The notes under the pieces: generated by a model
What the model saw: the letters and a program-made list of their open reading frames with translations, nothing else
Databases searched by the model: none
What the model was told of the DNA's origin: nothing
From: Eledone cirrhosa
Taxonomy: Eukaryota
Direction: 5' to 3'
Assembly (NCBI GenBank): GCA_964016885.1
Contig: OZ024743.1
Span: 67,642,001 to 67,706,000 of the forward strand
DNA length: 64,000 bases
Made by a program: the position numbers and the translations under genes
Shown: piece after piece, positions 20,275-64,000 of the stretch
How positions within the stretch are numbered: the stretch's first letter is position 1
How the letters are laid out: every line of letters begins with the position of its first letter

Positions 20275-20322
20275 CAGGTATACATACATATATGTACGTT
20301 CAACCATCTGGCAGAAGGGTAT

Positions 20323-20516: not shown

Positions 20517-20626
<110 letters not shown>

Positions 20627-20862: not shown

Positions 20863-20905
20863 ACGGTGCTGATGATAGCTAACAAGCTTGAAACTAGTAC
20901 ATCGT
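20863..20905 (+). ncRNA. Minimal type I hammerhead ribozyme motif (HHR-2b), identical to HHR-2a
   Basis: Same sequence 540 bp downstream; GUA at 20897-20899. Confidence 0.82.
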
Positions 20906-21056
20906 TCCTGTGTCAGTGTTGAACAAAAAGGTGACGTGGTTGCCTTAACACCGTACGGCATAAATTCAGGCTGTTCAGTTTGTTTATAAACGAACAAAGC
21001 GGGCGCTATAATAAGCGTCCGCTAAACTGATACGTACATATATGTATGTATACCTG

Positions 21057-21108
<52 letters not shown>

Positions 21109-21161
21109 TGCTACTGTACGTCTGTATACATATATGTATGTACGTATACATACATACTTAC

Positions 21162-21210
<49 letters not shown>

Positions 21211-30900: not shown

Positions 30901-33900
30901 GGTGGTGACACTTACACACAATGGTGGCAACACTGACAGACTATGGTGGTAACACTGAGAGACTATGGTGGCAACACTGACAGACTATGGTGGTAAGACT
31001 GACAGACTATGGTGGCAACGCTGACATACTATTGTAGTAACACTGACAAACTATGGTCGTAAGACTGACAAACTAAGGTAGTAACATTCACAGACTATGG
31101 TGGTAACACTGACAGACTATGGTGGCAACACTGACAGACTATGGTGGCAACATTGACATACTATGGTGGCAACACTGACAGACTATGGTGGTAACACAGT
31201 CAAACTATGGTGGTAACAATGACAAACTATGGTGGCAACACTGACATACTATGGTGGTAACACTGACAGACTATGGTGGTAACACTGACAAACTATGGTG
31301 GCAACACTGACAATCTATGGTGGTAACACTGACAAACTATGGTGGTGACACTGACAAACTATGGTGGTGACACTGTCAGACTATGGTGGTAACACTGACA
31401 GACTATGGGGGTAACACTGACGGACTATGGTGGTAACACTGACAAACTATTGTGGTAACACTGACAAACTAGGGTGGTAACACTGAAAAACTATGGTGGT
31501 AAATGACAAAATATGGCGGTATCACTGACAAAATATGGTGGTATAAAATGACATAATATGGTGGTAACACGGACAAACTATGGTTGCAACACTGACAAAC
31601 GATGGTGGTAACACTGACAAACTATAGTGGCAACACTGACAAACTATGGTGGTAACACTGACAGACTATGGGGGTAACACTGACGGACTATGGTGATAAC
31701 ACTGACAAACTATGGTGGTAACACTGACAAACTATGGTGGTAACACTGACATACTATGGTGGTAACACTGACAAACTATGGTGCTAACACTGACAAACTA
31801 TGGTGGTAACACTGACAAACTATGGTGGTATCACTGACAAAATATGGTGGTAACACTGTCATAATATGGTGGTAACACTGACATACTATGGTGGTAACAC
31901 TGACAAACTATGGTGGTAACACTGACAAACCATGGTGGTAACAATGACAAACGATTGTGGTAACACTGACAGACTATGGTGGCAACACAGACAGACTATG
32001 GTGGTAACACTGACAAACTATGGTTGTAACACTGACAAACTATGGTGGTAATACTGAGAGACTATGGTGGTAACACTGACACACTATGGTGGCAACACTG
32101 ACAAACTATGGTGGTAACACTGACAAACTATGGTGGTGACACTGACAAACTATGGTGGTGACACTGTCAGACCATGGTGGTAACACCGACAGACTATGGG
32201 GGTAACACTGACGGACTATGGTGGTAACACTGACAAACTATTGTGGTAACACTGACAAACTAGGGTGTTAACACTGAAAAACTATGGTGGTAGCAATGAC
32301 AAAAGATGGTGGCATCACTGACAAAATATGGTGGTAACACTGTCAGACTATGGTGGTAACACTGACATACTATGGTGGTAACACTGACAAAATATGGTGG
32401 TAACACTGACAGACTATGGGGGTAACACTGACGGACTATGGTGGTAACACTGACAAACTATGGTGCTAACAATGACAAACAATGGTGGTAACACTGACAA
32501 ACTATGGTGGTATCACTGACAAAATATGGTGGTAAAGCTGTCAGACTGTGGTGGTAACAGTGACATAATATGTTGGTAACACTGACAAACTATGGTGGTA
32601 ACAATGACAAACAATGGTGGTAACACTGACAGACTATGGTGGTAACAATGACAAATTATGGCGTTAACACTGACAGACTATGGTGGTAACACTGACAATG
32701 TATGGTGGTAACACTTACACGCTATGGTGGCAACACTGACAGACTATGGTGGTAACACTGACAGACTATGGTGGTAACACTGACAGACTATGGTGGTAAC
32801 ACTGACAATGTATGGTGGTAACACTTACACGCTATGGTGGTAACACTGACAAACTATGGTGGTAACACTGACAAACTATGGTGGTAACACTGACAAACTA
32901 AGGTGCTAACACTGACAACTATTGTGGTAACACTGACAAACTATGGTTGTAACACTGACAAACTATGGTGGTAACACTGACAAACTATGTTGGTAATACT
33001 GACAAAATATGGTGGTAACACTGACAAACTATGGTGGCAACACTGACAAACTATGGTGGTAACAATGACAGACTATGGTGGTAACTCTGACATACTATGG
33101 TAGCAACACTGACAAAGTATGGTGGTAACACTGACAAACTATGGTGGTAACACTTACACACTATGGTGGCAAAACTGACAAACTATGCTGGTAACACTGA
33201 CAAACTATGGTGGTAACACTGACAATCTAGTGTGGTAAAGCTGACAAACTATGGTGGTAACAATGACAAACTATAATGGTGACACTGACAAACTATGGTG
33301 GTGACACTGAAAAACTATAGTGGTAGCACTGACAGACTATGGTGGTAACACTGACAAACTATGGTGGTGTCACGGACAAACTATGTTGGTAACACTGATA
33401 GACGATGGTGGTAAAACTGATATACTATGGTGGTAACACTGACAGACTATGCTGGCAACACTGACAAAATATGGTGGTAACACTGAAATACTATGGTGGT
33501 AAGACTGACAAATTATGGTGGCAGCACTGACAGACTATGGTGCTAACACTGACAGACTATGGTGGTAACACTGACAGACTATGGTGGTAACACTGTCAGA
33601 CTACGGTGGTAACACTGACATACTATGGTGGTAACACTGAAAAACTATGGTGGTAGCAATGACAAAATATGGTGGCACCACTGACAAAATATGGTGGTAA
33701 CACTGTCAGACTATGGTGGTAACACTTACATACTATGGTGGTAACACTGACAAACTATGGTGGTAACACTCACAGACTATAGGGGTAACACTGACGGACT
33801 ATGGTGGTAACACTGACAAACTATGGTGCTAACACTGACAAACTATGGTGGTAACACTGACAAACAATGGTGGTATCACTGACAAAATATGGTGGTAAAA

Positions 33901-36900
33901 TTGTCAGACTATGGTGGTAACAGTGATATAATATGGTGGTAACACTGACAAACTATGGTGGTAACACTGACAGACTATGGTGGCAACACTGACAGACTAT
34001 GGTGGTAAGACTGAGAGACTATGGTGGCACCAATGACATACTATGGTAGTAACACTGACAAACTATGGTGGTAACACTGACAAACTAAGGTGCTAACACT
34101 GACAACTATGGTGGTAACACTGACAACCGATGGTGGTAACACTGACAAACTATGGTGGTAATACTGACAAACTAGGGTGGTAACACTGACATACTATGGA
34201 GGTAACACTGACAAACTATTGTTGTAACACTGACAAACTATGGTGGTAACACTGACATACTATGGTGGTAACACTGACAAACTATGGTGGTAACACTGAC
34301 AAAATATGGTGGTAACACTGACAAACTATGTTGGTAATACTGACAAAATATGGTGGTAACACTGACAAACTATGGTGGCAACCCTGACAAACTATGGTGG
34401 TAACACTTACAAAATATGGTGGTAACACTGACAATCTAGTGTGGTAACACTGACAAACTATGGTGGTAACACTGACAAACTATGGTGGTAACAATGACAA
34501 ACTATAATGGTGACACTGACAAACTATGGTGGTAGCACTGACAGACTATGGTGGTAACACTGACAGAATATGCTGGCAACACTGACAAAATATGGTGGTA
34601 ACACTGAAATACTATGGTGGTAACACTGACAAACTATGGTGGCAGCACTGACAGACTATGGTGGTAACACTGACAGACTATGGTGGTAACACTGACAAAC
34701 TATGGTGGTAACACTGACATACTATGGTGGTAACGCAGACATACTATGGTGGTAACACTGATAAACTATGGTGCTTACACTGACAATCTATGGTGGTAAC
34801 ACTGACAAACTATGGTGGTAACACTGACAATCTATGGTGGTAACACTGACAAACTATGGTGGTAACACTGACATACTATGGTGCTAACACTGACAAACTA
34901 TGGTGGTAACAATGACAAACAATGGTGGTAACACTGACAAACTATGGTGGTAACAATGACAAACTATGGTGGTGTCACTGTAAAACTATGTTGGTAACAC
35001 TGACATACTATGGTGGTAACACTGACAGACTATGCTGCAAACACTGACACACTAGGGTGGTAACACTGATAACTATATTGGTAACACTGACAGACTATGG
35101 TGGTAACACTGACAGACTATGGTGGCAACACTGACAGACTATGGTGGTAACACTGACAGACTATGGTGGCAACACTGACATACTATGGTAGTAACACTGA
35201 CAAACTATGGTGCTAACAATAACAAACTATAATGGTATCACTGACAGACTATGCTGGTAACACGGACAAACTATGGTGGTAACACTGACAATCTATGGTG
35301 GTAACACTGACAAACTATGGTGGTAACACTGACAAACTATGGTGGTAACACTGACAAACTACGGTGGTAACAATGACAAACTATAATGGTAACACTGTCA
35401 AACTATGGTGGTAACAATGACAAACTATGGTGGTAACACTGACAAACTATGGTGGTAACACTGACAGACTATGCTGGCAACACTGACAAAATATGGTGGT
35501 AACACTGAAATACTATGGTGGTAACACTGACAAACTATGGTGCTAACACTGACAAACCTTGGTGGTAACACTGACAAATTATGGTGGTAACACTGACAAA
35601 CAATGGTGGTAACACTGTCAGACCATGGTGGTAACACTAACATACTATGGTGGTAACACTGTCAAACTATGGTGGTAACAATGACAAACAATGGTGGTAA
35701 CACTGCCAGACTATGTTGGCAACACTGACAAACTATAGTGGTAACAGTGACAGACTATGGTGGTAACACTGACAGACTATGGTGGTAACACTGACATACT
35801 ATGGTGGCAACACTGACAAACTATGCTGGTAACACTGACACACTATGGTAGCAAAACTGACACACTATGGTGGTAAAACTGACACACTATGGTGGTAACA
35901 CTGACACACTATGGCGGTAACACTGACAAACTATGGTGGTAACACTGACACACTATGGTGGCAAAACTGACACACTATGGTGGTAACACTGACAACTATG
36001 TTGGTAACACTGACAGACTATGGTGGTAACACTGACAATCTATGGTAGTAACACTGACAAAATATGGTGCTAACAATAACAAACTATGATGGTAACACTG
36101 ACAAACTATGGTGGTAACAATGAAAAACTATAATGGTAACACTGAAAAACAATGGTGGTAACAATGACAAACTATGGTGGTGTCACGGACAAACTATGTT
36201 GGTAACACTGACAGACTATGGTGGTAACACTGACATACTATGGTGGTAACACTGACAGACTATGCTGGCAACACTGACAAAATATGGTGGTAACACTGAA
36301 ATACTATGGTGGTAACACTGACAAACTATGGCGCTAACACTGACAAACCTTGGTGGTAACACTGACAAATTATGGTGGTAACACTGACAAAACTATGGTG
36401 GTAACACTGTCACACCATGGTGGTAACACTGACATACTATGGTGGTAACACTGACAAACTATGGTGGTAACAATGACAAACAATGGTGGTAACACTGCCA
36501 GACTAAGGTGGTACCAATGACAAATTATGGTGTTAACACTGACAGACTATGGTGGAAACACTGACAAACTATGGTGGTAACACTTACACACTATGGTGAC
36601 AAAACTGACAGACTATGGTGGTAACACTGACAGACTATGGTGGCAACAATGAAATACTATGGTGGTAACACTGACAGACTATGGGGGCAACACTGACATA
36701 CTAATGGTAGTAACACTGACAAACTATTGTGGTAACACTGACAAACTATGGTGGTAACACTGACAACTATGGTGGTAAAACTGACAAACTATGGTGGTAA
36801 TACTGACAAACTATGGTGTTAACACTGACATACTATGGTGGTGTCACTGTAAAACTATGTTGGTAACACTGAAATACTATGGTGGTAACACTGACAAACT

Positions 36901-39900
36901 ATGGTGGTAACACTGAAATACTATGGTGGTAACACTGACAAACTATGGTGGTAACACTGACACACTATGGTGGTAACACTGACATACTATGGTGGTAACA
37001 CTGACAAACTATGCTGGTAACACTGACACACTATGGTGGTAAACTGACACACTATGGTGGTAACACTGACAAACTATGGTGGTAACAATGACAAACAATG
37101 GTGGTAACACCGCCAGACTATGGTGGTAACACTGACAAACTATGGTGGTAACAATGACAAACAATGGTGGTAACATTGACAGACTATGGTCGAAACACTG
37201 ACAAACTATGGTGTTAACACTTACACACTATGGTGGCAAAACTGACAAACTATGCTGGTAACACTGAGAAACTACGGCGGTAACACTGACAATATATGGT
37301 GGTAACACTGACAAACTATGGTGATAACACTGACAAACTATGGTGGTAACAATGACAACCTATAATGGTTACACTGACAAACTATGCTGGTGACACTGAA
37401 AAACTATAGTGGTAGCACTGACAGACTCTGGTGGTAACACTGACATACTATGATGGTAACACTGACAAACTATGGTGGTAACAATGACAAACTATGGTGG
37501 TGTCACGGACAAACTATGTTGGTAACACTGACAGACTAAGGTGGTAACACTGACATACTATGGTGGTAACACTGACAGACTATGCTGGCAACACTGACAA
37601 AATATGGTGGTAACACTGAAATACTATGGTGGTAACACTGACAAACTATGGTGGCAGCACTGACAGACTATGGTGGTAACACTGACAAACTATAGTGGTA
37701 ACAGTGACACACTATGGTGGTAACGCTGACATACTATGGTGGTAACACTGATAAACTATGGTGCTAACACTGACAAACTATGGTGGTAACACTGTCAGAC
37801 TACGGTGGTAACACTGACATACTATGGTGGTAACACTGACAAACTATGGTGGTAACACTGACAAACTATGGTGGTAACAATGACAAACAATGGTGGTAAC
37901 ACTGCAAGACTATGTTGTAACAATGGCAAATTATGGTGTTAACACTGACAACTATGGTGGAAAAACTGACAAACAATGGTGGTAACACTGACAAACTATG
38001 GTGGTAATACTGACAAACTATGGTGTTTACACTGACATACTATGGTGGTAACACTGAAAAACTATGATGGTAACACTAACAAACTATGGTGGTGATACTG
38101 AAAAACTATAGTGGTAACACTGACATACTATGGTGGTAACACTGACAGACTATGGTGGTAACACTGACAAACTATGGTGGTAACAATGACAAATTATGGT
38201 GGTGTCACTGTAAAACTATGTTGGTAACACTGACATACTATGGTGGTAACACTGACAGACTATGGTGGTAACACTGACATACTATGCTGGCTACACTGAC
38301 AAACTATGGTGGTAACACTGAAATACTATGGTGGTAACACTGACAAACTATGGTGGCAGCACTGACAGACTATGGTGGTAACACTGACAGACTATGGTGG
38401 GAACACTGACAAACTATGGTGGGAACACTGACACACTATGGTGGTAACATTGACATACTATGGTGGTAACACTGGCAATCTATGGTGGGAACACTGACAA
38501 ACTATGGTGGGAACACTGACAAACTATGGTGGTAACACTGACAGACTATGGTGGTAACACTGACAGACTATGGTGGGAACACTGACACACTACGGTGGTA
38601 AAACTGACACACTATGGTGGTAACACTGACAACTATGGTGGTAATACTGACATACTATGATGGTAACACTGACAAACTATGGTGGTAACACTGACACACT
38701 ATGTTGGTAAAACTGACACACTACGGTGGTAACACTGACACACTATGGTGGTAGCACTGACAAACTATGCTGGTAGCACTGACACACTACGGTGGTAAAA
38801 CTGACACACTATGGCGGTAACACTGACAACTATGTTGGTAATACTGACATACTATGGTGGTAACACTGACAAACTATGGTGGTAACACTGACAGACTATG
38901 GTGGCAACACTGACAAACTATGGTAGTAACACTGACAGACTATGGTGGTAACACTGACAAACTATGTTGGTAACAATGACAAACTATGGTGCTAACACTG
39001 ACAAACTATAGTGGTAACACTGACATACTATGGTGGTAACACTGAAATACTATGGTGGTAACACTGACAGACTATGGTGGCAACACTGACATACTATGGT
39101 GGTAACACTGACAGACTATGGTGGCACCACTGACATACTATGGTAGCAACACTGACAAACTATGTTGGTAACACTGACAATCTATGCTGGTAACACTGAC
39201 AAACTATAGTGGTAACACTGACAAACTATGGTGGTAACACTGACAAACTATGGTGGTAACACTGGCAATCTATGTTGGTAACACTGACAAAATATAGTGG
39301 TAACACTGACAAACTATGCTGGTAACACTGACAATCTATGGTGGTAACTCTGACAAACTATGGTGGTAACACTGACAATCTATGGTGGTAACACTGACAA
39401 ACTATGGTGGTAACACTGACATACTATGGTGCTAACACTGACAAACTATGGTGGTAACAATGACAAACAATGGTGGTAACATTGACAAACTATGGTGGTA
39501 ACAATGACAAACTATGGTGGTGTCACTGTAAAACTATGTTGGTAACACTGACATACTATGGTGGCAACACTGACAAACTATGGTGGTAACACTGACAGAC
39601 TATGCTGCAAACACTGACAAACTATGGTGATAACACAGAAATACTATGGTGGTAACACTGACATACTATGGTGGCAACACTGACAAACTATGGTGGTAAC
39701 ACTGACAGACTATGCTGCAAACACTGACAAACTATGGTGATAACACAGAAATACTATGCTGGTAACACTGACAACCATGGTGGTAAAACTGACAAACAAC
39801 GGTGGTAACACTGACAAACTATGGTGGTGATACTGAAACAATATAGTGGTAACACTGACAGACTATGGTGGTAACAATGACAAACTAGGGTGGTAACAAT

Positions 39901-42900
39901 GACAAACTATGGTGGTGCCACTGTAAAATTATGTTGGTAACACTGACAGACTATGGTGGTAACACTGACATACTATGGTGGTAACACTGACAGACTATGC
40001 TGGCAACGCTGACAAAATATGGTGCTAACACTGAAATACTATGGTGGTAACACTGACAAATTATGGTGGCAGCACCGACAGACTATGGTGGTAACACTGA
40101 CAGACTATGGTGGTAACACTGACAAACTATGGTGCTAACACTGACACACTATGGTGGTAACACTGACAAACTATCGTGGTAACACTGATAAACTATGGTG
40201 GTAACACTGACAAACTATGGTGGTAACACTGTCAGGCTATGGTGGTAACACTGACATACTATGGTGGTAACGTTGACAAACTATGGTGGTAACACTGACA
40301 AACTATGGTGGTAACAATGACAAACAATGGTGTTAACACTGACAGACTATGGTGGTAACACTGACAAACTATGGTGGTAACACTGACAAACAATGGTGTT
40401 AACACTGACAGACTATGGTGGTAACACTGACAAACTATGGTGGTAACAATGACAAACAATGGTGTTAACACTGACAGACTATGGTGGTAACACTGACAAA
40501 CTATGGTGGTAACAATGACAAACTATAATGGTAACAATGACAAACTATGGTGGTGTCACGGACAAACTATGTTGGTAACACTGACAGACTATGCTGGTAA
40601 CACTGACAAACTATGGTGGTAACACTGACAGACAATGCTGGCAACACTGACAAAATATGGTGGTAACACTGAAATACTATGTTGGTAACACTGACAAACT
40701 ATGGTGGCAGCACTGACAGACTATGGTGGTAACACTGACAGACTATGGTGGTAACACTGACAAACTATGGTGGTAACAATGACACACTATGGTGGTAACA
40801 CTGATAAACTATGGTCCCAACACTGGCAAACTATGGAGGTAAAACTGACAAACTATGGTGGTAAAACTGTCAGACCATGGTGGTAACACTGACATACTAT
40901 GGTGGTAACACTGACAAACTATGGTGGTAACACTGTCAGACCATGGTGGTTACACTGACATACTATGCTGGTAACACTGAGAAACTATGGTGGTAACACT
41001 GACAAACTATGGTGGTAACAATGACAAACAATGGTGGTAACACTGCCAGACTATGGTGGTAACAATGACAAATTATGGTGTTAACACTGACAGACTATGG
41101 TGGAAACACTGACAAACTATGGTGGTAACATGTACACACTATGGTGGCAAAACTGACAGACTATGGTGGCAACACTGACATACTAATGGTAGTAACACTG
41201 ACAAACTATTGTGGTAACACTGACAAACTATGGTGGTAACACTGACATCTATGGTGGTAAAACTGACAAACAATGGTGGTAACACTGACAAACTATGGTG
41301 GTAATACTGACAAACTATGGTGATAACACTGACATACTATGGTGGTAAAACTGAAAAACTATGGTGGTAACACTGACAAACTATGGTGGTAACACTGACA
41401 TACTATGGTGGTAACACTGACAAACTATGGTGGTAACACTGACAAACTATGGTGGTAACACTGACAGACTATGCTGGCAACACTGACAAACTATGGGGAT
41501 AACACTGAAATACTATGGTGGTAACACTGACAAACGATGGTGGTAACACTGACACACTATGGTGGTAACACTGACATACTATGGTGGTAACACTGACAAA
41601 CGATGGTGCTAAAACTGACACACTATGGTGGTAACACTGACAACTATGGTGGTAACACTGACAAACTATGGTGGTAACAATGACAAACTATGGTGGTAAC
41701 ACTGACAAACTATAGTGGTAACACTGACATACTATGGTGGTAACATTGACATACTATGGTGGTAACACTGACATACTATGGTGGTACCACTGACAAACTA
41801 TGGTGGTAACACAGACAAGCTATGGTGGTAACATTGACAGACTATGGCGGTAACACTGACAACTATGGTGGTAACACTGACAAACTATGGTGGTAACACA
41901 GACACACTATGGTGGCAACATTGACAGTCTACGGTGGTAACACTGACAACTATGTTGGTAACACTGACAAACTATTGGTGGTAACAGTGACAGACTATGG
42001 TGGTAAAACTGACAGACTATGGTGGTAACACTGACACACTATGGTAGTAACACTGACATACTATGGTGGTAACACTGACAAACTATGCTGGCAACACTGA
42101 CACTCTATGGTGGCAAAACTGACAAACTATGGTGGTAACACTGATATACTATGGTGGTGACACTGACAAACTATGGTGGTAACATTGACAGACTATGGTG
42201 GTAACACTGACAACTACGGTGGTAACACTGACGAACTATGGTGGCAACACAGACAAACTATGGTGGTAACATTGACAGACTATGGTGGTAACACTGACAA
42301 CTATGGTGGTAACATTGACAGAATATGGTGGTAACACAAACAAACTATGGTGGTAACATTGACAGACTATGGTGGTAACACTGACAAACTAGGATGTTAA
42401 CACAGACAAACTATGGTGGTAACACTGACAGACTATGGTGGTAACACTGACAAACTATGTTGGTAACACTGACAAATTATAGTGGTAACACTGACAGACT
42501 ATGGTGGTAACACTGACACACTATGGAGGTAACACTGACATACTATGGTGGTAACACTGACAAACTATGCTGGTAACACTGACACACTATGGTGGCAAAA
42601 CTGACAGACTATGGTGGTAACATTGACACACTATGGTGGCAACACTGACAAACTATGGCGGTAACAATGACAAACTATGGTGGTAACACTGACAAACTAT
42701 AGTGGTAACACTGACATACTATGGTGGTAACACTGACAGACTATGGTGGTAACACTGCCATACTATGTTGGTAACACTGACAAACTATGCTGGTAACACT
42801 GACACACTATGGTGGTAAAACTGACACACTATGGTGGTAACACTGACACACTATGGTGGTAACACTGACAAACTATGGTGGTAACACTGACACACTATGG

Positions 42901-44256
42901 TGGTAACACTGACAAACTATGCTGGCAACACTGACACACTATGGTGGTAAAACTGACACACTATGGCGGTAACACTGACAACTATGGTGGTAACACTGAC
43001 ACACTATGATGGTAACACTGAAAAACTATAGTGGTAACACAGACATACTATGGTGGTAACACTGACATACTATGGTGGTAACACTGACAAACTATAGTGG
43101 TAACACTGACAGACTATGGTGGTAACACTGACATACTATGGTGGTAACACTGACAAACTATGGTGGTAACACAGACAAACTATGGTGGTAACATTGACAG
43201 ACTATGGTGGTAACACTGACAACTATGGTGGTAACACTGACAAACTATGGTGGTAATACAGACAAACTATGGTGCTAACATTGACAGACTATGGTGGTAA
43301 CACTGACAACTATGGTGGTAACACTGAAAAACTATGGTGGTAACAGTGACAGACTATGGTGGTAACACTGACACACTATGGTGATAACACTGACACACTA
43401 TGGTGGTAACACTGACACACTATGGTGGTAACACTGACAGACTATGGTGGTAACACTGACAAACTGTGGTGGTAACACTGACATACTACGGTGGTAACAC
43501 TGACAAACTATGCTGGTAACACTGACACACTATGGTGGTAAAACTGACACTCTATGGTGGTAACACTGACACACTATGGTGGTAGCACTGACATACTATG
43601 GTGGTAACACTGACAAGCTATGCTGGTAACACTGACACACTATGGCGGTAAAACTGACACGAAATGGTGGTAGCACTGACAAACTATAGTGGTAACACTG
43701 ACATACTATGGTGGTAACACTGACAGAATATGGTGGTAACACTGACATACAATGGTGGTAACACTGACAAACTATGGTGGTAACACAGACAAACTATGGT
43801 GGTAACATTGACATACTATGGTGGTAACACTGACAACTATGGTGGTAACATTGACAGTCTGTGGTGGTAACACAGACAAACTATGGTGGTAACATTGACA
43901 GACTATGGTGGTAACACTGATAAACTATGGTGGTAACAGTGACAGACTATGGTGGTAACACTGACACACTATGGTGGTAACACTGACACACTATGTTGGT
44001 AACACTGACAGACTATGGTGGTAACACTGACATACTATGTTGGTAACACTGACAGACTATGGTGGCAACACTGACAGACTATGGTGGCAACACTGACAGA
44101 CTATGGTGGCAACACTGACAGACTATGGTGGCAACACTGACAGACTATGGTGGCAACACTGACAGACTATGGTGGTAACACTGACAGACTATGGGGGTAA
44201 CACTGACAGACTATGGTGGTAACACTGACAGACTATGGTGGTAACACTGACAGACT
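24949..44256. repeat. ~19.3-kb tandem satellite, 22-bp unit, consensus TAACACTGACA(A/G/T/C)ACTATGGTGG, roughly 880 units
   Basis: Period of 22 read directly (e.g. CTATGG at 44101 and 44123); uninterrupted, one orientation, sharp ends; occasional 21- or 23-bp units. Confidence 0.99.

Positions 44257-47946: not shown

Positions 47947-48006
<60 letters not shown>
46970..48006. repeat. (CA)n/(TG)n/(TA)n microsatellite field
   Basis: Direct reading. Confidence 0.93.
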
Positions 48007-48009
<3 letters not shown>

Positions 48010-48037
48010 ATCAAAAGATGGTTAAAAGAGTTCCATG

Positions 48038-48108
48038 TATTTTATTATGCGCATTTCAAAAACAAATATCATCATGCAATAACATTTGTGTTTTCATCAG
48101 ATAAAATA
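48038..48108 (-). ncRNA. Type I hammerhead ribozyme motif (HHR-3)
   Basis: Minus strand: tattttat-CTGATGA-aaacacaaatgttatt-gcat-gatgatatttgttttt-GAA-ATGCGCAT-A-ataaaata: perfect 8-bp stem I, ~15-bp stem II, palindromic stem III, AUA triplet. Confidence 0.85.
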
Positions 48109-48251
48109 GGAAGACATGATATGAAGGTTAAAAAACACTTGTGGATAGTGCAGTTTTAAATCAACATATGATAGTCCTACAAACTGTAGAGTGCTTCTTA
48201 TCCGATATCTGCATTGCTCTATTGTACTACAATAAAACTCACCTCCTACAT

Positions 48252-48282
<31 letters not shown>

Positions 48283-48384
48283 TTATATATAACCAAAGAT
48301 TAATAGGGTTCATTGATTACTCAATGAACATAGTTTTACAATAGATTAAAAGCACTCAACAAATCAGGTTTTCTTGAGTTATTA

Positions 48385-48473
48385 ATTGTTTCTACTTTTG
48401 GCACAAGGCCAACATCAACCAGTGCATTACTGGTACTTTATTTTATCGACTCCGTAAGGATGAAAGGCAAAGT
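48385..48473 (-). mobile_element. Partial tRNA-derived SINE (core and tail)
   Basis: GGCACAAGGCC..ACTGGTACTTTATTTTATCGACTCCGTAAGGATGAAAGGCAAAGTT. Confidence 0.82.
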
Positions 48474-48512
48474 TATTAATAAATGAACACATTCACATAA
48501 TCAAATTACATG

Positions 48513-48574
48513 TTTTATTATATATATTTCGAAGGTACTGTGCTGTTTTTTCAGTACGTCCTCGTCAGATAAAA
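48513..48574 (-). ncRNA. Type I hammerhead ribozyme motif (HHR-4)
   Basis: Minus strand: ttttat-CTGACGA-ggacgtactg-11-nt loop-cagtaccttc-GAA-ATATATAT-A-ataaaa: 6-bp stem I, stem II with 9 of 10 pairs starting G-C, palindromic stem III, AUA triplet. Confidence 0.82.
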
Positions 48575-48691
48575 TACATGAATTGATGTATGACATACCT
48601 CAACGGTCTTGATGGTTCAATTCCAGTATTGGCAGTCAATTTTCCTAGGTTTTATTTGATTATGTGAATGTCTTCATTTATTAATATTCTG

Positions 48692-49400
<709 letters not shown>

Positions 49401-50477: not shown

Positions 50478-51981
50478 ACTTTCTTTTTATTTGCCACCAG
50501 GGCATCAAAGAGTGGGACAAGTACAGGGGGGGGGGTGAGTTTACATAAAAAGGCGTCCTCAATAAGGAGGAGGCAAAAACAAAATATAAAAAATATAAAA
50601 TATAAAATATAACAAAAATAAATTGAATAACAAAATCCTTAATAGGAAGGAAATAAATCCTTAACACGAAAAAGTGTGCAACCCTTATCCTCAGGAGCAC
50701 AGAGAGAGGGTGATCCCATGATCTTTCATCTTTCTCACCTACAGTCTGATGTAGAGTGAAGGCCCATTCACACGGGCCATTCTCGCCACTTTCACCCATC
50801 TTTCATAGAAACGGCTGGGGTGCAGCACCTCTCTCTCCATCCTGATCCTTCTTCCGAAATGATATCGGAAGAAACGGACCAGTTGTTGGCCAGAAAGAAA
50901 GGTGTCTGACCTCAGTCCTTTCAGACGCCTCCACCATACAACCTCTTTCACCATGGCTATTACGCAAAAAATCACCGCCCCTCCTTCGTTTTTGAAGAGG
51001 GGGGGGGGGGGCTTGATCGTTACATTAGACTCGGTGGTCAAACGGATCGGTCCCACCCGTGACAGCAGTCGTTCGACATAGCCCCACATCGGCAATGCCA
51101 GAGCAGTGTACCAAACCGTGTGCAAGTGTTTCCTCGACGCACACGCATCTGGGACAGATCTTTTTCGAGGGGTCCCTACCCGGGCGCCCGTGTCTGTAGA
51201 GCCTTTCTCGAACGGGCAGAGCCCCTCGGTAGCACTGCCAGGTCAGGGACCTCTGGAAGTTATCCATAGGTCCCGGGCTGAATTCGGAGGGCATCGATTT
51301 GCCCCTCCACGTGCCGAGTTGCAAACCGATCGACTTGTCCCGGTACAGCTTAGCCCCTGAAAACCTTTCGTACTCCTCCAGTAAGGTGCCGATCGCCCCA
51401 ATTTCCGAGACCTTCGCCACCATTACTTTTACCTCATCGGCGTAGGCTGACACCGCTTTCCGCAATCTCGGTTCCAAACGGATTCTCTGAAACAACTCCA
51501 ACTTCCGCAGCAGTGGCTCTAGAGTCATTACATACAGAAGGGAGGAGAGAGGGCACCCTTGTCGGATGGACCGCGCGATTTCGAACGGCTCCGTGAGGTA
51601 GCCATACACCTTGACCCTAGAGCAGATGCGGCTGCTGTGCATGGCAGTGATCCAGCCCCTGAAAAGGGGTCTGAAGCCTGCCGCCGCTAGCACCGCATCC
51701 AGGTAACCATGGTCGACCCTATCGAACGCCTTAGATTGATCCAAGTTGATCAGGGCCCCACCAAAGCCAGGTTCGTTCCCAACCATCTCTATGATGTATC
51801 GCATGAGGTGGAGGTTGTCGTGGATGGACCAGGACGGGATAGCACATGTCTGCGCATCTCCCACCAGTTTGCCCACGACAAGCGTCAACTTCTTTGCTAG
51901 CACCTTGGCCAAAATCTGTAACTCTGTAGTTAGCAGAGTTATGGGCCTGAAAATACTTATATCGTCCCCCTTGTTCTCGTC
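50478..51981 (-). mobile_element. Tx1/L1-clade LINE copy E: 5'-truncated, internally deleted, 3' UTR intact
   Basis: ORF 51025..52074 from DENKGDD..FRPITLL through KAFDRVDH, RQGCPLS, AYADE to CPRCVCVEET; C-terminus in 50739..51125; 3' end GTGGCAAATAAAAAGAAAGT then (TATC)n. Confidence 0.95.
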
Positions 51982-54808: not shown

Positions 54809-54900
54809 TTCTTTAGATTGTTGTAGTTTTATTTGTTGTGGTGGTCATGGTATTATGAATATTGACGGTATCTATCTATCTATATATCTATCTATCTATA

Positions 54901-57900
54901 TTTTAACTTTTCAGAACCAACATGGCCAATATAAAAGTTGGATGTGTGAATGTACGCGGCCTGGGGATGCCCTGGAAACAGAGCAAACTCTTAAATGACA
55001 TCAGGTCGCACAGTATGGATGTAGTAGCCATTTGCGAGTCCAGGATCCACAGCGAGCGACAGCTGCCCCCATCTTCGATAACTTTGAGATCTACGCATCT
55101 CTCTGTCAGCCGGGGTGGGGGTGGGGGCGGGGTTGCCGTTTTGCTGCGGAAACACCTGGGCCTCGTAACACAGACGGTACATCTGGACCCGGAGGGTCGA
55201 CTGGTGGTCCAAGTCGTTGACGGTATTGAAGGTGGAGCCTTCAGGCTGGTAGCCGGATATGCCCCGTCCGGGACACCGCGGCCAGACTTCTTCAAACGTA
55301 TAGAAACTTTTCTGGGAACGTCCCACTTCTTGCTTTTGGTGGAGGACTGGAATGGAATCCTACATGCACGTTGGGATTATGTCGGAGCATGTCCCGATAA
55401 AGGAGGGTGTAACAGCCTCAAACCATTAATCGGCCGATTTGACCTGGCCGATAGATATCGACTAGATTTTCCGGCTGGGCCACTGTGGACGTGGACTAAT
55501 TTTAGCGGAACAACTAGATCGTACCTAGATAGGGTTCTAGTTAGAAATAAGGATAGGGACATGTTAAGCTGTCCACATATGTTCATGGTTGCCTATTCAA
55601 ATCTCAAACTAGTGACCTGCATGGTCAACCTTGATAGAACCCATAGATAAGGACGCGGCTACTGGAATCTGAACTTGTTGTTACCACCATGCAAAGCCTA
55701 CAGTTGACGGATTAGCACTTTAGTTAAATAGCTCTTGACAGGGGCCATTGTCAACAACATATGGTGGTACTCTCTCAAGAGGGCAGTTAGATTAGACTCG
55801 TTTGTCTTTAGTAAAGAATTAGCGTTAGATAGAAATATGACCGAGAAGGAACTGGTAGATAAAGTAGAAGAGGCAATTAGAAGTGGCAACGTAGCCAGCG
55901 TGCTAGCAACGAGAACGGCTTTGGACCAGTTCTTCGACACAAAGCACGAGGGCTGCGTTGTCAGAAGCAAAATACGTGCTCTGGGAAACGAAGGAGCCAA
56001 AGTTGTAAGCTGGGCGCGAGTGACGGAGGCAAAAAGTGGCAACAGTTCACGATACGATCTTTGACGGACCAAGACGGACGCGTCATATGTGAGTCGAAGC
56101 AGATCTGTGCGGCCTTTCAGTGGCACTTTGCTCAACTCTTCGGGCAGGGCGGCGCCCCGGGAGGGGCTATGGTTTTCGGTCCATACCTCGACGGCCTACC
56201 ACGACCCTCGGACAGCGAGGAGAAGTTCTGCGAAAAGGCCGATTTCAGCCGCTGAGATATGAGACGCGCTGAGCCAATGCAGCAAACGCAAATCTCCAGG
56301 TTTCGACGGGCTAACCTAAGAATTTTACGCAATGACGGTCTTATTCTCCGGTCTCCTGGAAGCGGTCTACTGCAACTGGCAGCAGAACGGGAGCGTAGTC
56401 ACACTAGACAGGAAGGACGAGAATAAGGGGGATGAGATAGGCAACCTCCGACCCATAACTCTTCTAAACACAGAGTTACAGATTTGGGCCAAGGTGTTGG
56501 CAAAGAGGCTGGCGCTTGTTGTCGAGAACATGGTGAGAGAAGCGCAGACATGCGCAATCCCGACCAGCTCCATACTCGACAACCTCCACCTCATGCGATA
56601 CATCATAGAGAGGGTAGAGTGTAAACCCGGCTTCGGTGGGGCCCTGTTCAACTTGGATCAGTCTAAGGCTTTCGATAGGTTTGACCATCGTTACTTGGAT
56701 GCGGTGCTCGAGGCGGCAGGCTTCGGACCCGTGTTCAGGGGCTGAATTGCTGCAATGCACAACAACAAAATCTGCTCAAGGGTCAAGGTGAACGGCTACC
56801 TCTCGGAGGCGTTCTATATCACGCGATCCATTCGACAGGGATGCCCTCTATCCTTCCTTCTGTACGTACTGACTCTTGAGCCACTACTACGGAAGTTGGA
56901 GCTATTGAGAGCATCCCTCTGGAACCGGGACTGCGGAAAGCGGCGTCGGCCTACGCCGACGACGTTTTAAGGAATGATGTCGAGCGCCTCGCAAATGGAG
57001 GAAGTCGGCATCTTACTAAAGGAATACGAAAGGTTCACAGGAGCGAAGCTGAACCGGGCAAGTCCATCGGTTTGCAACTCGGATCGTGGAGAGGCAAACC
57101 GAGGCCTTCCGATGGCATCTCTACGTATTCCTCACCGGACAACCGATGTGGGCCCCGTTCGTGAGGCGAGCCTTCCCACCACTCGTCTCGCTGACGGAGC
57201 TGCAGTTTTTTCAAGCAAAGACCGAGGAATATGGGCACTCGCACATTGAATGTGCTCAGGCGCTCACAGCCCTCTGGCAGTGGGACCCTGGCGATCAGTG
57301 GAGATTCCACTTCGTCATTCTATAGAGGGTTGATCCGCAGCAAGTGTGACGAAACGCTCGGTGAAACTCTGGGCGAGAGGAAGATGAACTGGCCAGTCAG
57401 CTCGGTAGGACCTTCCGCCCGGGAGCGATGGACAACTTCCAAAAGTCCCTGACCTGGCAGTGCTACCGAGGAGCTCTACCAGTTCGAGACAAGCTCTACA
57501 AACATGGGCGCCCGGACAGGGACCCTTCGAAAAAGATCTGTCCGAGGTGCGTGTAGAACGACTATTGTCGCGGGTTGGACCAATCTGGTTGACTACCGAG
57601 TCCATTGTCATGATCAAACCGCCACCCTCCTTCAAAAACGAGGAGAGGCAGGTTTCTTTTGTGTGATAGCTATGGCGAAAGAGGTTGTATGGTGGACAAG
57701 GTTGAAAGGGCTGAGGTCAGACACCTTTCTCTCCGGCCAACAACTGATTCTTTTTTTTCAAATACCACTTTAGAAAAAGAATCAGGATGGAGAGAGAGGT
57801 GCTGTACCCCAGCAAGTTTTATGAAAGGTGGGTGAATGTGGCGAGAATGGCCCGAGTGAATGGACCTTCTCTCTATATCAGCCTGTAGGTTGAGGAAAAA

Positions 57901-58468: not shown

Positions 58469-60477
58469 ATGGAAGCCATTACCACAGGTAACGATGACAC
58501 GCCCACTAAACAAACTGAAGGAGAGCGGGTAGCTGAGGCAACAAGCCACCCTACTGAAAGAATAATGATTATTAGAAACATTGAAAAAATGGAACCTAAC
58601 CCTAATGAAAAAAATGTGAAAAAAATTAACTCGGAGAAATTGCCAAAATTAATGGATGACGTTTCGACTTTTCACGGCGCCACGCCCACCAGCAAAGGGG
58701 AAAGAGAAGTAGTAGCTGTGACTACAAGTCTCTCGGATAATGAAAATATAAGTGAAGATTTTGAAAAAATAGAGTCTAACCGCAAAGAAAAAAAAATGTG
58801 AACGAATACACCAACATAAATAACACAAACACAACAAAAACAACTTTCGCACAGACAACAAAAACATCTATCATATATACACCTATTGACTTAACTGCCG
58901 CCAGAGAGAAACTGGCAGAAGCAAAAAAGCACATAGTCTTGGGGGAGAACGGAATGTTTTCCATTAATCCCCCCCCCCCCCCCCCCAGAATTCAAGAAAA
59001 CAAGACTAGAAAACACTGTTCTGTTTAGAACAGTCCTAAACAACACGAGAAAGCCAGCACAGCCCAGCCAAATGGAGATAGAGTTGGTCTAATATTCTCT
59101 TCATACGAAAGCACTGACTCTATGGCAGCATTTCTGTTTTAACAAAAGACAAGGAAACAGCACAGAGGCTTTCCCTAAGCCCACTCACATCAACAACATA
59201 CAGTTTCTATCCCTCCTACATGGGTAGAAGAACTCAGAGAGTCAAAATACAGACAACGCTGCCCACAATGAACTTCTGGTGGGCTATTGCTGGCTTCATA
59301 GACATGGGCGAGGACACAGTGCTGTCAATGGGGAAGGCATCTGGAGATGCGTTCCTGGGAATGGGCCTCGACTTACTAGTCCAAATGAGGCCCGAAAGAA
59401 TAGCGCAAATCCCGGATCGCATCTGGCTGGATGACCTCACCCCAATATATATAATTGTAGAGGGGAGAAGACCAGCATGCTATTCATGCACGGAAAGAGG
59501 ACACGTTAAGGCTCACTGCCCGAATCGTATCCCCCCAAAATGACTATTGACCACACCCACCACAAACAGTACACCAACACCTCCAAAAATACACTAATAC
59601 CACACACAGCAAACAAAATACAGACACTACCAACCACAAACACAACACAAACATCACCACCACCAGCACCAAACACAAGCACGACACAAAAATCACCACC
59701 ACCATCACCGACCACAACACAAACATCACCACCACCATCACCAACCACAAGCACGACACAAACATCACCACCACCACCACAAAACACATTCCAAAAAAAT
59801 AATAAAAAAAACAGTAACAAATCTACCCCTCCCGCAAAAAAAAACAACCAGACACTACGTCCCTCCCACCTAGCGCTGAAGAGTTTCCCCCAACTTCTGA
59901 AGAAGGAGGAGAAACCTTCAGACAAGTTAAAAGGCAAAAACGAAAGCACATACCCAGCACACCACAACAACAAATAACCCACACACAAACACCAACTCCA
60001 ATCAAAAACACCCCACCCTCGACAAACAAAAATAAATCTGCGCCTCCCCCCTTCGAAACATTGACAGCATCACAAAAAAGACTTTACAATACACATATAT
60101 AAATAAAGAAAACAAAAAAACTGTTTAAATTAATAAACAATAGCCCTTTGGTGCAGACCGAAGGGCCAAACTTTATCTCAACAGAGAACTTCACCCATTT
60201 AAAAATGATAAAGGTCCCTCTGGACCTTTATCGTTCCTTAAAAGAACAATTTAAACAGGACGTGAGCCCCCCCCCCTGTTTAAAACCGTTAAATCGCGTC
60301 CTCTTGAAAGACTTCCCCATAACCTCCTTCTCCCTGACACAACTCCAAATACCCCAACCCCACCACACTCGGATACCCCCACAAAACATCCCTCCACCCA
60401 ACACACCCGACCCCATGGAAATTACGCAACCCGGAGAGGTAGGTGCTTTTCTTTCTTCACTTTCAACACCAAAATAG
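58469..60477 (+). pseudogene. Copy D ORF1 (gag-like, CCHC zinc knuckle), frameshifted
   Basis: Pieces 58370..58801, 58798..59028, 59220..59543 (VEGRRPACYSCTERGHVKAHC), 59540..59977, 60148..60477; several breaks fall at homopolymer runs. Confidence 0.82.
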
Positions 60478-63400
60478 ATCAATGGAGAGTTGGTTGTTTG
60501 AATGCGCGTGGCCTGGGTCAGCTCGGAAGCAAGCAAAGCTTCTAAGTGACCTCAGGTCACGAAGTATAGATGTGATGGTTGTTTGCGAGAGTCGGATCAG
60601 CAGCGTGCGACAGCTGGCTCCCGCCTTCGATGATTTGAGATGCACGCATCTCTCTGTCAACCCGGAGGCGGGGGTGGGGTTGCCGTACTGCTGGATAAAC
60701 GTCTGGCTCTCGACGTACAGATTGTTCACTCGGACCCGGGGGGTCGATTACTGGTGCTGGACGTCGGAGGCGGTGAAAGCGGGGCTTTCAGACTGGTCGG
60801 TCTTTATGCCCCCTTCGGGGCTGAAAGAGCCGACTTCTTCCTGCTTTTAGTGGGGGACTGGAATGGAATCCTAGATGCGCGTTGGGACTATGCAGGGGCA
60901 TGTCCCGATAGAGGGGGGGGTGTAGCAGCCTCAAGGGGTTACTCGATCGATTCGACCTGGTCGATAGATTTCGACTAGATTTTTCAACTGTGCCAACCTG
61001 GACCTGGGCAAACCGCAGTGGTCAATCTAGATCGTACCTAGATAGGTTTTTGGTTAGGAGTAAGGATAGGGACGTATTTAGTTGTCCAGAATTGCTCATG
61101 GTTGGCTATTCAGATCACAAATTAGTGACCTGCGTGGTCAACCTTGATAGAACGCATAGACAGGGTCCCGGTTACTGGAAGATGAACTTGTCCTTGCTGG
61201 CAAAGGAAGCTTACAGGAACCGGATTAGTAGCTTAGTTAAGATGCGGTTGACGGGAGCGATCGTCAACAGCAGGTGGTGGGTATCTCTAAAGAGAGATAT
61301 TAGAGTAAGTTCGATAGGTTACAGTAAGGAACTAGCAGCGAATAGAAATAGGAGGGAAAGGGAGTTGACAGATAAACTAGAAGAGGCGATTAGGAGCGGA
61401 GACGTGGCCAGAGTGTTAGCATCGAGAACGGCGTTGAGCCAGTTCCTTGACGCGAAGCACGAAGGCTGCGTTGTCCGAAGTAAAATACGTGCTTTAGGAA
61501 ACGAGGGGACCAAAGCTGTTAGCTGGGCCCGCGTGACAGAAGCCAAGAGTGGGATTAAATCCACCATTCGGTCTTTGCGAGACCAGGATGGACGGGTGAT
61601 CCTTGAACCTGAGCGGATGTGCGAGGCCTTTCAAAGGCACTTTGCTCGACTGTTCGGAGGGGGCGGGGGGCTGGACGGGGATGTGGACTTCGGTCCATAC
61701 CTCGACGGCCTACCGCGTCTTTCGAGCGGCCAAGCGGAGTGCTGCGAAAGGCCAATCACAGCCACTGAAATCGGGGAAGCGCTCAGCCAATGCAGCAGAC
61801 GCAAATCTCCGGGTCTCGATGGTCTACCATACGAACTTTATTTAGCTATGCCGGTCCTGTTCTCCGAACTCCTCGAGGCTGTCTATTGCAACTGGCAACA
61901 GAACGGGAGAATTCCCTGTTCTGTGACCAAGGGCGTAGTCACGCTAGTGAGGAAGGACGAGAGCAAGTGGGACGACTTAAGTAACTTTAGGCCCATAACT
62001 CTGCTGAATGCAGAGTTACAGATTTTGGCCAAGGTGTTAGCGAAGAGGTTGGCGCTTGTGGTGGGTGGCTTGGTGGGAGACGCGCAGACATGCGCTATCC
62101 CGTCCAGGTTCATTCACGAAAACCTCCACCTCATGCGATACATCGTAGAGAGGGTTGGGAACGAACCCGGCTTTGGTGGGGCCCTGATCAACTTGGATCA
62201 ATCTAAGGCGTTCGATAGGGTCGACCATGGTTACCTGGATGCGGTGCTAGCGGCGGCGGGCTTCGGACCCGTTTTCAGGGGCTGGATTTCTGCCATGAAC
62301 AGTGGCAACGTCTGCTCTAGGGTTAAAGTAAACGGCTACTTCTCGGAGCCGTTTCAAATCACCCGGTCCATCAGGCAGGGGTGCCCCCTCTCCTCCCTTC
62401 TGTACGTATTGCCTCTCGAGCCACTGCTGCGGAAGTTGGAGTTGCTGCGGGGCATAACCCTGGAACCGGGATTGCACAAAGTGGTCTTGGCCTATTCCGA
62501 CGACGTAACAGTAATGGTGGCGGACGCCTCGGAAATCGGGACGATCGCCACCCTACTAGAGGAATACGAATGGCTGACGGGGGCTAGGGTGAACCGGGAC
62601 AAGTCAGTCGGTTTGCAACTCGGAACGTGGAGGGGCAAACCGATGCCGTTAGACGGTGTCGTCGGAGGGTGGACGGAGGGCCCGGTGAAGCTGATCGGGG
62701 TCTGGTTCGGACCGGACCTCCAGGTGGAGAAGAATTGGGGCGAGGTGACGAGCAGGGTGTTTGCGCTGACCCAGAAGTGGGCCAAGTGCAAACTATCACT
62801 GAAAGGTCGGGCGGAGGTGGCGAACGCTTACATAGCGTCCGTCATCTACTACCCCCTGACCGTCCTGCCTTGCCCTAAGGAAACGCTCACCATCATGGAG
62901 CGCATGCTCTTCCAGTTCTTCTGGAAGAAGCGGCCTCCCATGGTGAGGAGATCCATCTGCTGCCAGCACCCTTCGAAAGGAGGGCTGGGTATGCCGTGGC
63001 TGTTGATGCGTAGGCACGCATTGAGACTACGGCATCTGCAGGTATTCCTCACCGGTCAGCCGGTGTGGGCCCCGTTTGTGAGGCGAGCCTTCCTACAGCT
63101 CGTCTCGCTCACCGAGCTGCAATCCTGGGTGAAGCAAAGACCGAGAAAACTGGGCAACTGGCACACCGAGTGTGCCCAGGCGCTCACGGCTCTCTGGCAA
63201 GCGGACCCGACTATCAGTGGAGAATCCAGCTCGACATTCTATAGAGGGCTGGTGGCTAGCAGGGGCGACGACACTCTTGGAGAGTCGCTAGGCATGGAGT
63301 AGGACGAACTGGCCAGCCTGTTCGGTAGAACTTTCGGCCCGGGACCCATGGACAACTTCCAGAGGTCTCTAGCCTGGCAGTGCTACCGGGGGGCTCTGCC

Positions 63401-63875
63401 CTTACGAGAAAAGCTCTACAGACGCGGGCGCCCGGGCAGGGATCCCGCGAAAAAGATCTGTCCCAGATGCGTGTGCGACGAGGAAACCGTTGTGCACGCA
63501 CTGGTACACTGCCAGGGCGTTGCCGATCTGTGGGGCTACGTCGAACGACTGCTGTCGCGTGTGGCACCGATTCGATTCGCCGCCGAGTCTGTGGTGAACA
63601 TCAAGCCGCCTCCTCCCTTCAGAAATGAAGCAGAGGCGGTCTTTCTGTGCGTAATAGCCATGATGAAAGAGGTTGTGTGGTGGACGCGCCCGAAAGGTCT
63701 GAGGTCGGGCGACTTTCTCTCCGGCCAACACCTGGTTTACTTCTTCCGATACCACTTCGGAAGAAGGATCAGGGTGGAGAGAGAAGTGCTTGGCCCCAGA
63801 CAGTTTTATGAAAGGTGGGGGAAAGAAGCGAGAATGTCTCGTGTAAATGGGCCTTCTCTCTATATTGTTCTGTAG
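60474..63875 (+). pseudogene. Copy D ORF2 (APE-RT-Zn); endonuclease frameshifted, one in-frame stop at 63300-63302
   Basis: Start codon apparently ATA at 60474 (IDQWRVGCLNARGL); EN pieces 60443..60850 and 60640..60978; 770-aa open stretch 60990..63302; the frame continues to 63875. Confidence 0.93.
60990..63302 (+). CDS. Longest open frame: C-terminal part of endonuclease plus reverse transcriptase of Tx1 copy D
   Basis: SYLDR, SDHK, KSPGLDGLPYE, FRPITLLN, LDQSKAFDRVDH, IRQGCPLS, AYSDDVTV. Confidence 0.85.
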   Translation: MPTWTWANRSGQSRSYLDRFLVRSKDRDVFSCPELLMVGYSDHKLVTCVVNLDRTHRQGPGYWKMNLSLLAKEAYRNRISSLVKMRLTGAIVNSRWWVSLKRDIRVSSIGYSKELAANRNRRERELTDKLEEAIRSGDVARVLASRTALSQFLDAKHEGCVVRSKIRALGNEGTKAVSWARVTEAKSGIKSTIRSLRDQDGRVILEPERMCEAFQRHFARLFGGGGGLDGDVDFGPYLDGLPRLSSGQAECCERPITATEIGEALSQCSRRKSPGLDGLPYELYLAMPVLFSELLEAVYCNWQQNGRIPCSVTKGVVTLVRKDESKWDDLSNFRPITLLNAELQILAKVLAKRLALVVGGLVGDAQTCAIPSRFIHENLHLMRYIVERVGNEPGFGGALINLDQSKAFDRVDHGYLDAVLAAAGFGPVFRGWISAMNSGNVCSRVKVNGYFSEPFQITRSIRQGCPLSSLLYVLPLEPLLRKLELLRGITLEPGLHKVVLAYSDDVTVMVADASEIGTIATLLEEYEWLTGARVNRDKSVGLQLGTWRGKPMPLDGVVGGWTEGPVKLIGVWFGPDLQVEKNWGEVTSRVFALTQKWAKCKLSLKGRAEVANAYIASVIYYPLTVLPCPKETLTIMERMLFQFFWKKRPPMVRRSICCQHPSKGGLGMPWLLMRRHALRLRHLQVFLTGQPVWAPFVRRAFLQLVSLTELQSWVKQRPRKLGNWHTECAQALTALWQADPTISGESSSTFYRGLVASRGDDTLGESLGME

Positions 63876-64000
63876 GTGAAGAAGTGAAGAGGAAAGGGGG
63901 AGCGCCTCCTCTCTGGGCTTCCCCCGCGAAAAGGGTTGCACACTTTTCGGGGGTATGTGCAATCCCCAACACGCTCCCTCCCTTTTGAGGACATTTTATT

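Follow-up and report, generated by a model that had tools for sequence, protein, structure and literature searches.

Our preferred reading of a pair of hammerhead motifs in Eledone cirrhosa, to which we assign a probability of roughly 0.8, is that they belong to two families that are likely pseudo-LTR ends of Penelope-like elements (PLEs), that truncated copies of both inserted independently in one (TA)n tract, and that the match between their arms is an ancestral stem I. The motifs, HHR-3 and HHR-4, lie in a 64,000-nt stretch of DNA (the window, whose positions are used throughout) that is microsatellite-rich, holds LINE reverse-transcriptase ORFs (RVT_1) and many SINE-like copies, and resembles the genomic DNA of animals. 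The evidence comes from the motifs themselves, from the depth and variation of the repeats that carry them, from the anatomy of the inserted units, from predicted folding, and from a PLE family in metagenome contigs.

Two type I hammerheads on the minus strand

HHR-3 and HHR-4 carry CUGANGA, GAAA and UH in type I order, with an AUA triplet in both, 6-8 bp of stem I near the core and, in HHR-3, a 12-bp stem II (Table 1). The initial annotation had described two minus-strand hammerheads of the same geometry with palindromic stems III, lying 468 nt apart in the same orientation and sharing a perfect 12-bp arm match, and each of these elements was located as claimed: the core-to-core distance is 468 nt, and 48034-48045 and 48569-48580 are 100% complementary over 12 nt. 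The two A.C mismatches foreseen for a mixed stem III are present as well, together with two isolated U-G pairs. One proposed distinction had to be given up, i.e., that CUGACGA and CUGAUGA mark different hammerheads: as a family difference this is ruled out, because the HHR-4 family itself reads CUGAUGA at 30-61% of its depth (place 48564).

Chance does not account for these motifs, since a pattern built from HHR-3 and HHR-4 matches the window twice and 100 shuffles yield 0.00 matches on average, and a family-neutral descriptor (core, perfect stem III palindrome and at least 3 stem I pairs) picks up 5 motifs, the rate over 200 shuffles being 0.005 per shuffle. In the HHR-3 family, the pairing of stem II is retained in all four of the family variants listed; these sequence changes suggest that the family has retained a folded ribozyme. 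Rfam returned no hammerhead family among 66 matches over the whole window (E up to 1), nor among 12 matches over 48000-48700 (E up to 10), and the matches obtained were microsatellite-driven and under gathering scores.

Table 1. Features of the HHR-3/HHR-4 locus (window positions).
Feature	Position	Strand	Remarks
HHR-3, type I hammerhead motif	48034..48112	minus	core and stems; 4/4 listed stem II family variants pair
HHR-3 5' arm	48101-48112	minus	
HHR-3 core CUGAUGA	48100-48094	minus	
HHR-3 stem II, AU-rich	48093-48058	minus	
HHR-3 GAA	48057-48055	minus	
HHR-3 palindrome AUGCGCAU	48054-48047	minus	
HHR-3 A17	48046	minus	predicted cleavage after A 48046
HHR-3 3' arm	48034-48045	minus	
HHR-4, type I hammerhead motif	48500..48587	minus	own stem I pairs 16/19 in register
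HHR-4 5' arm	48569-48587	minus	
HHR-4 core CUGACGA	48568-48562	minus	
HHR-4 stem II	48561-48531	minus	
HHR-4 GAA	48530-48528	minus	
HHR-4 palindrome AUAUAUAU	48527-48520	minus	
HHR-4 A17	48519	minus	predicted cleavage after A 48519
HHR-4 3' arm	48500-48518	minus	
Flanking (TA)23	47962..48007		
Unit 3 sense piece	48008..48168	minus	5'-truncated copy of high-copy family with HHR-3; ends 38 nt past cleavage site, in (TA)n
Unit 3 inverted piece (tail-bearing inverted copy)	48173..48250	plus	downstream of HHR-3 in other copies
(TA)20 microsatellite	48252..48291		between unit 3 and third fragment
Third repeat fragment ending in (TA)n	48292..48375	minus	weak likeness to unit 3 downstream piece, 15/18 nt, E 0.05
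5'-truncated SINE-like fragment	48376..48475	minus	very high copy; blastn, 10 further matches in window
Unit 4 sense piece	48474..48650	minus	5'-truncated copy of second, rarer family with HHR-4; common to other copies up to ~48636
Unit 4 inverted piece	48654..48696	plus	33-bp inverted copy (97%) of 48474-48506 plus 10 further nt, then (TA)n
Flanking (TA)n-rich array	48696..49018		

Two repeat families of unequal depth

Reads or contigs of four runs (X1, X5, X7 and X21, of 23 listed) were aligned to 48008-48696 at 80% likeness. Coverage is heavy over both the HHR-3 block (48008-48168) and the HHR-4 block (48491-48628), with the former deeper in every run: summed depth is 0.9-2.1 million against 0.07-0.25 million per bin in X1, 257-1225 against 19-37 in X5, 247-2346 against 25-170 in X7, and about 700-2700 against 210-950 reads in X21. 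Summed depth is not copy number, but the direction of the inequality is the same in all four runs. At the internal junctions coverage drops almost to that of a single locus, with a depth of 116 in X1 (at 48173) and 13 reads in X21 (at 48629-48651), and no joint connects the HHR-3 block with the HHR-4 block among the 15 listed of 141, the aligned pieces being shorter than the stretch. HHR-3 and HHR-4 are two separate repeat families, present at unequal depth. The two units are alike only in a 15-nt arm plus core and in the stem III region, with no mutual repeats beyond the motif, and the head-to-tail tandem monomers with the same hammerhead that characterize non-LTR retrozymes were not found.

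Anatomy of the units and the spacer

Each unit consists of a 5'-truncated sense piece capped upstream by an inverted piece on the opposite strand (Table 1). In unit 3, the piece upstream of HHR-3 is inverted downstream sequence, because elsewhere the 48008 end continues into 48173-48250 on the opposite strand; this joint (48008 to 48173) is carried by 1218 reads in X21 and by 5, 2 and 1 contigs in X1, X5 and X7. The inverted piece extends about 135 nt beyond the cleavage site, while the sense copy does so by only 38 nt. One X7 contig departs from the window sequence at 48171 and continues for ~210 nt. In unit 4, a 33-bp inverted repeat joins 48654-48686 with 48474-48506, and the corresponding opposite-strand joint (48510 to 48655) appears in 70 reads of X21 and 2 contigs of X1. 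Both units are cut off 70-80 nt upstream of the core, and (TA)n borders three of their four ends.

The spacer is a mosaic of (TA)20, a third repeat fragment and a SINE-like piece, with locus-specific junctions; the 468-nt interval was therefore rejected as a retrozyme monomer. The third fragment is possibly the 3' end of another related family, and a 9-bp hairpin lies within it at 48308-48329, just 5' of its (TA)n end. The SINE-like piece appears to be a truncated SINE: its depth in X1 is about 12-13 million over 48422-48467, and its loose ends continue into a common upstream part.

These features fit PLE pseudo-LTRs on three counts. The short palindromic helix III suited to homodimer action is represented by perfect 8-nt palindromes; an inverted 5'-truncated copy at the 5' end, with a one-end extension, occurs in both units; and the families are dispersed at AT-rich/(TA)n DNA, with high depth in 4/4 runs. 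Membership of the HHR-3 and HHR-4 families in PLEs rests on this anatomy, because no PLE ORF is linked to them in the window; tblastn of metagenome PLE proteins against the window gave nothing significant (best E 0.055, in a satellite). The window also contains a 19.3-kb satellite array at 24949-44256, with ~879 copies of a 22-nt unit at 86% matches.

Origin of the cross match

The cross helix (48034-48045 with 48569-48580) extends to 14 pairs with one G-U. The last 8 nt are common to the 5' arms of HHR-3 and HHR-4, and for this reason 8 of the 12 cross pairs simply repeat the 8 pairs of HHR-3 with its own 5' arm. The remaining 4 pairs would arise by chance with a probability of 0.7-1.5%, which makes descent from a longer common stem I the more probable origin. 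From the sequence of the arms, the match is probably a common ancestral stem I, one that we infer rather than see; this was the fallback of the initial annotation (a stem I common to the family), and it emerges as the best reading. A CATG motif, or CATA in the case of the HHR-4 family, occurs in each of the four arms at 7-18 nt from the core.

Variation within the HHR-4 family favours its own stem I over the cross helix. Specifically, the variant at 48577 (22% of depth in X1, 61% in X5, 61% in X7 and 51% in X21) replaces an own G-U by A-U but a cross G-C by A.C, while the variant at 48582 (6% in X1, 50% in X5, 61% in X7 and 77% in X21) turns an own mismatch into A-U at the loss of one cross pair. 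A third variant, at 48578 and mostly in X7, disrupts both helices. With five family letters placed in HHR-4, the own stem pairs 16/19 (-7.9 kcal/mol) and the cross stem 13/19 (-5.7 kcal/mol); about 40-78% of the HHR-4 family depth retains the 48577 letter that permits the full 12 bp. No variant falls at 48034-48045 among the 40 of 129 variant rows listed. We also considered whether this copy alone had lost 2 nt in its HHR-4 3' arm and discarded the idea, because the family letters pair in register and gap-free.

Predicted folding

The two palindromes, each paired with an identical copy over 8 bp, give homodimer stems III of -3.2 and -10.5 kcal/mol. A mixed HHR-3/HHR-4 stem III reaches +1.7 kcal/mol at best and +3.2 to +6.6 in register, and a continuous stable stem III between the two was not found, the helix being broken by its two A.C and two isolated U-G. 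The reciprocal cross stems I are unequal as well, one being 12-14 bp long (-13.5 kcal/mol) and the other 6 bp (-4.3; -1.8 with family letters). Computed on linker-joined pieces, the active double hammerhead of two HHR-3 copies is separated from the free ensemble by 2.2 kcal/mol; the corresponding gap is 6.6-9.3 kcal/mol for two HHR-4 copies and 14.7-19.0 kcal/mol for one of each.

At the locus, the cross helix (-13.5 kcal/mol) competes with own stems of -7.8 and -6.1 kcal/mol, and in a 581-nt minus-strand read-through fold it is dominant, with pair probabilities of 0.82-0.97. Above that ensemble lie a hybrid in which the HHR-4 core acts on the HHR-3 site (9.6 kcal/mol), the HHR-3 monomer (10.3), the HHR-4 monomer (12.5) and the full heterodimer (18.4); catalytic folds are all rare in the predicted read-through ensemble. 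Folding of the minus strand, as the initial annotation had proposed, supports a dominant cross helix but not the mixed stem III, which is unfavourable, or the full heterodimer. As the hybrid is predicted to be as accessible as the HHR-3 monomer, some cleavage of the HHR-3 site by the HHR-4 core is possible in a test tube.

Comparison with known hammerhead elements

PLE pseudo-LTR hammerheads (Cervera and De la Pena, 2014; PMC4209133) are described there in terms that fit HHR-3 and HHR-4: type I, with a small palindromic helix III and a long helix II, acting as dimers, and occurring as many families per genome, mostly as dispersed truncated copies. Likewise, Craig et al. (2021; PMC8557442) describe PLE insertions in which a 5'-truncated copy adjoins the 5' end in inverted orientation, only one end carries a tail and (TA)n is favoured, as in units 3 and 4 with their inverted pieces, one-end extensions and (TA)n surroundings; the tail is linked in PMC11167929 to two reverse-transcription start sites, and PMC6765202 reports that PLEs tend to insert into or beside existing PLE copies. 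Recently active Penelope-like families are reported from an octopus (PMC13282606), in a main text without the words "hammerhead" or "ribozyme." Differences exist too. The window lacks a linked RT/GIY-YIG ORF; stem I is extendable here to 12-19 pairs, against 4-5 bp in the minimal PLE motifs given in PMC4209133; and two families adjoin here on the same strand, whereas the close pairs of Schistosoma in that source lie ~100-700 bp apart on opposite strands.

Animal non-LTR retrozymes (Cervera and De la Pena, 2020, PMC7229834; bioRxiv 10.64898/2026.07.22.740005), as those sources present them, resemble these units in being short, low-GC and non-coding with a type I hammerhead, and two ribozyme families in one genome are known from mussel and axolotl. 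They are, however, head-to-tail monomers of 150-450 bp, whereas the 468 nt here are a mosaic of unrelated repeats. The suggestion of the initial annotation that the pair represents related retrozyme subfamilies therefore survives in part: these are related hammerhead families with a common proximal stem I and geometry, but their anatomy is that of PLE pseudo-LTRs and not of tandem retrozyme monomers.

In the dimeric hammerhead of newt satellite and viroid RNAs (Forster et al., 1988, as cited in PMC4209133 and PMC6765202), the 5' arm of one ribozyme pairs with the 3' arm of the other, as here, and each palindrome could form an 8-bp stem III with an identical copy. Unlike in that structure, the HHR-3/HHR-4 stem III contains two A.C and two isolated U-G, and the second cross stem is 6 bp. 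On this modelling and on the anatomical features above, HHR-3 and HHR-4 would act like PLE-type dimeric hammerheads. Our search of the open-licence literature found no paper on natural heterodimers between hammerhead families or on any other cross-family case. Lunse et al. have reportedly treated PLE hammerhead dimers in work of possible relevance to mixed ones.

A metagenome PLE family with the same anatomy

A strict two-family pattern had 0 matches in metagenome contigs, and a looser one gave 119 loci, among them 69 copies of one family in 68 loci; the other 51 loci were excluded as probable chance. The 6-bp proximal stem I of this family is the same as in the window, but it was imposed by the search pattern and so is no independent finding. 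One locus, L157, holds an open 720-residue ORF (L157:3215-5374, minus strand) that ends 164 nt before the hammerhead core and displays RT-like, CxxC-linker and GIY-YIG-like motifs. Its Atlas neighbours carry HTH_animal and GIY-YIG; neither Pfam at cut-offs nor a PDB sequence search gave it a name. Visible motifs and Atlas neighbours together are the basis for assigning it to PLEs.

Across the family, a same-strand ORF remnant lies within 600 nt upstream in 38 of the 62 copies that have at least 300 nt upstream. An inverted upstream piece occurs in 10/65 copies, and in 5 of these it passes the sense end, like the one in unit 3. In 1/69 copies (L215) a hammerhead from a different family lies close by, 189 nt away on the opposite strand. 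The contigs of this family are probably animal host DNA. The family shows that such an anatomy is a property of PLE ends; it is no proof that the window families are PLEs.

Two further observations concern the family itself. Its stem III loop (L157 and 67 related loci among L121-L239) is mostly an imperfect palindrome, perfect in 5/69 copies. At L161 (minus strand), an inverted upstream copy abuts the catalytic core without a gap and so provides a fresh 5' arm, with an 18-bp perfect stem I; to judge from this arrangement, PLE insertion may be a way of rebuilding a ribozyme arm. In viral contigs the pattern hit 120 loci. A weak stem filter left 3 of them, none showed a stem III palindrome, and the hits were taken as chance.

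Other hammerhead-like motifs in the window

The three other motifs found by the family-neutral descriptor (18204, 20329 and 20869, all plus strand) lie in inverted or partial-tandem structures at (TA)n. The first (18190-18285, with CUGAUGA at 18204) has the palindrome ACCAUGGU, a GUA triplet and a short stem I; its stem II region is unusually long (51 nt) and looks branched, and the motif sits inside a unit at 17645-18556 bounded by 82-85 nt inverted repeats beside (TA)n. Adjoining this unit is a reverse-transcriptase-like LINE fragment (18560-19950), presumably RTE-like, in two opposite pieces that meet near 19390. Other LINE copies, which we take to be L1/Tx1-like, lie at 50480-51975 (minus), 54900-57800 (plus) and 60440-63900 (plus), the last with a 796-residue open frame (RVT_1).

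The near-identical hammerheads at 20329 and 20869 form a 540-nt partial tandem (20296-21166, plus) with a AACUAGUA palindrome region and a GUA triplet, capped by a 202-nt inverted piece (20095-20296). For a functional double hammerhead, these two motifs of one family are a better candidate than HHR-3 and HHR-4.

Weighing the explanations

Under the preferred reading, both insertions into AT-rich DNA would be the work of the reverse transcriptase and GIY-YIG endonuclease of PLEs. Within its parent element, each ribozyme would act as a homodimer between tandem pseudo-LTR copies, with identical stem III palindromes paired, and the ancestral 12-bp stem I would have been retained as the 3' arm in the HHR-3 family and as the 5' arm in the HHR-4 family. 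In read-through RNA of the locus, the cross helix would mostly block both monomer folds without a good double hammerhead being formed, and HHR-3 and HHR-4 are predicted to be poorly active here.

The cross match could instead have been selected, as a heterodimeric or hybrid hammerhead in which the HHR-4 core docks on the HHR-3 site through the 12-14-bp cross stem I and cuts there, within one read-through RNA or acting in trans, with or without the reciprocal half. Such a device would explain why the 12-bp match is exact and in the register of a double hammerhead; it would also fit the dominance of the cross helix in the predicted fold, the position of the HHR-4-core/HHR-3-site hybrid as the most accessible catalytic fold computed (by 0.7 kcal/mol), and the fact that the mixed stem III retains A15.1-U16.1 and the pair that follows. 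Against it stand a reciprocal stem of just 6 bp (-4.3 kcal/mol; -1.8 with family letters), the positive energy of the mixed stem III and a full heterodimer 18.4 kcal/mol above the ensemble, together with unequal family depths, a mosaic spacer with locus-specific junctions, and HHR-4 variants that commonly break the cross helix, and we consider it very improbable. The heterodimeric pair of the initial annotation is set aside on the same grounds, i.e., unequal depth, mosaic spacer, variants that favour HHR-4's own stem, one short cross helix and an unstable mixed stem III. That two retroelement families maintain cross-complementary arms so that one core cuts the other's RNA—to cleave it, silence it or recombine at the site—is a proposal that we likewise strongly doubt.

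Two other accounts share with the preferred reading a common descent of the arms. Both units might be solo copies of non-autonomous non-LTR retrozymes moved by PLE proteins, with independent insertions and a common stem I; the window does lack a linked ORF, family depth is very high for pieces so short, and such monomers with a PLE origin are described in bioRxiv 10.64898/2026.07.22.740005. But there is no head-to-tail repeat, the units share only the 15-nt arm plus core and the stem III region, and the inverted 5' caps and palindromic stem III match PLE pseudo-LTRs, which leaves this account unlikely. Alternatively, the HHR-4 5' arm might have been rebuilt from an HHR-3-like 3' arm by an inverted cDNA copy joined at the core, for which L161 offers a precedent: its inverted upstream piece ends 0 nt before the core to give an 18-bp perfect stem I, and when 67 copies are compared in 4422 ordered pairs, L161 provides the 5' arm in 38/38 cross pairs of at least 12 bp. 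The match of the HHR-4 5' arm to HHR-3 downstream sequence, however, ends at 12-14 nt, while pairing with its own 3' arm spans 19 nt in register, and such rebuilding—a variant of the common-ancestry reading rather than a function—seems scarcely credible here.

Implications

Under the preferred reading of stacked PLE-type insertions, two hammerhead families without Rfam recognition join the many already described for Penelope-like elements. Were the hybrid reading correct, the locus would be a natural example of ribozymes acting across families of mobile elements, and the function of PLE hammerheads could be tested directly on it. Insertions stacked in a microsatellite can mimic a designed ribozyme pair, and such stacking is ordinary for animal genomes.
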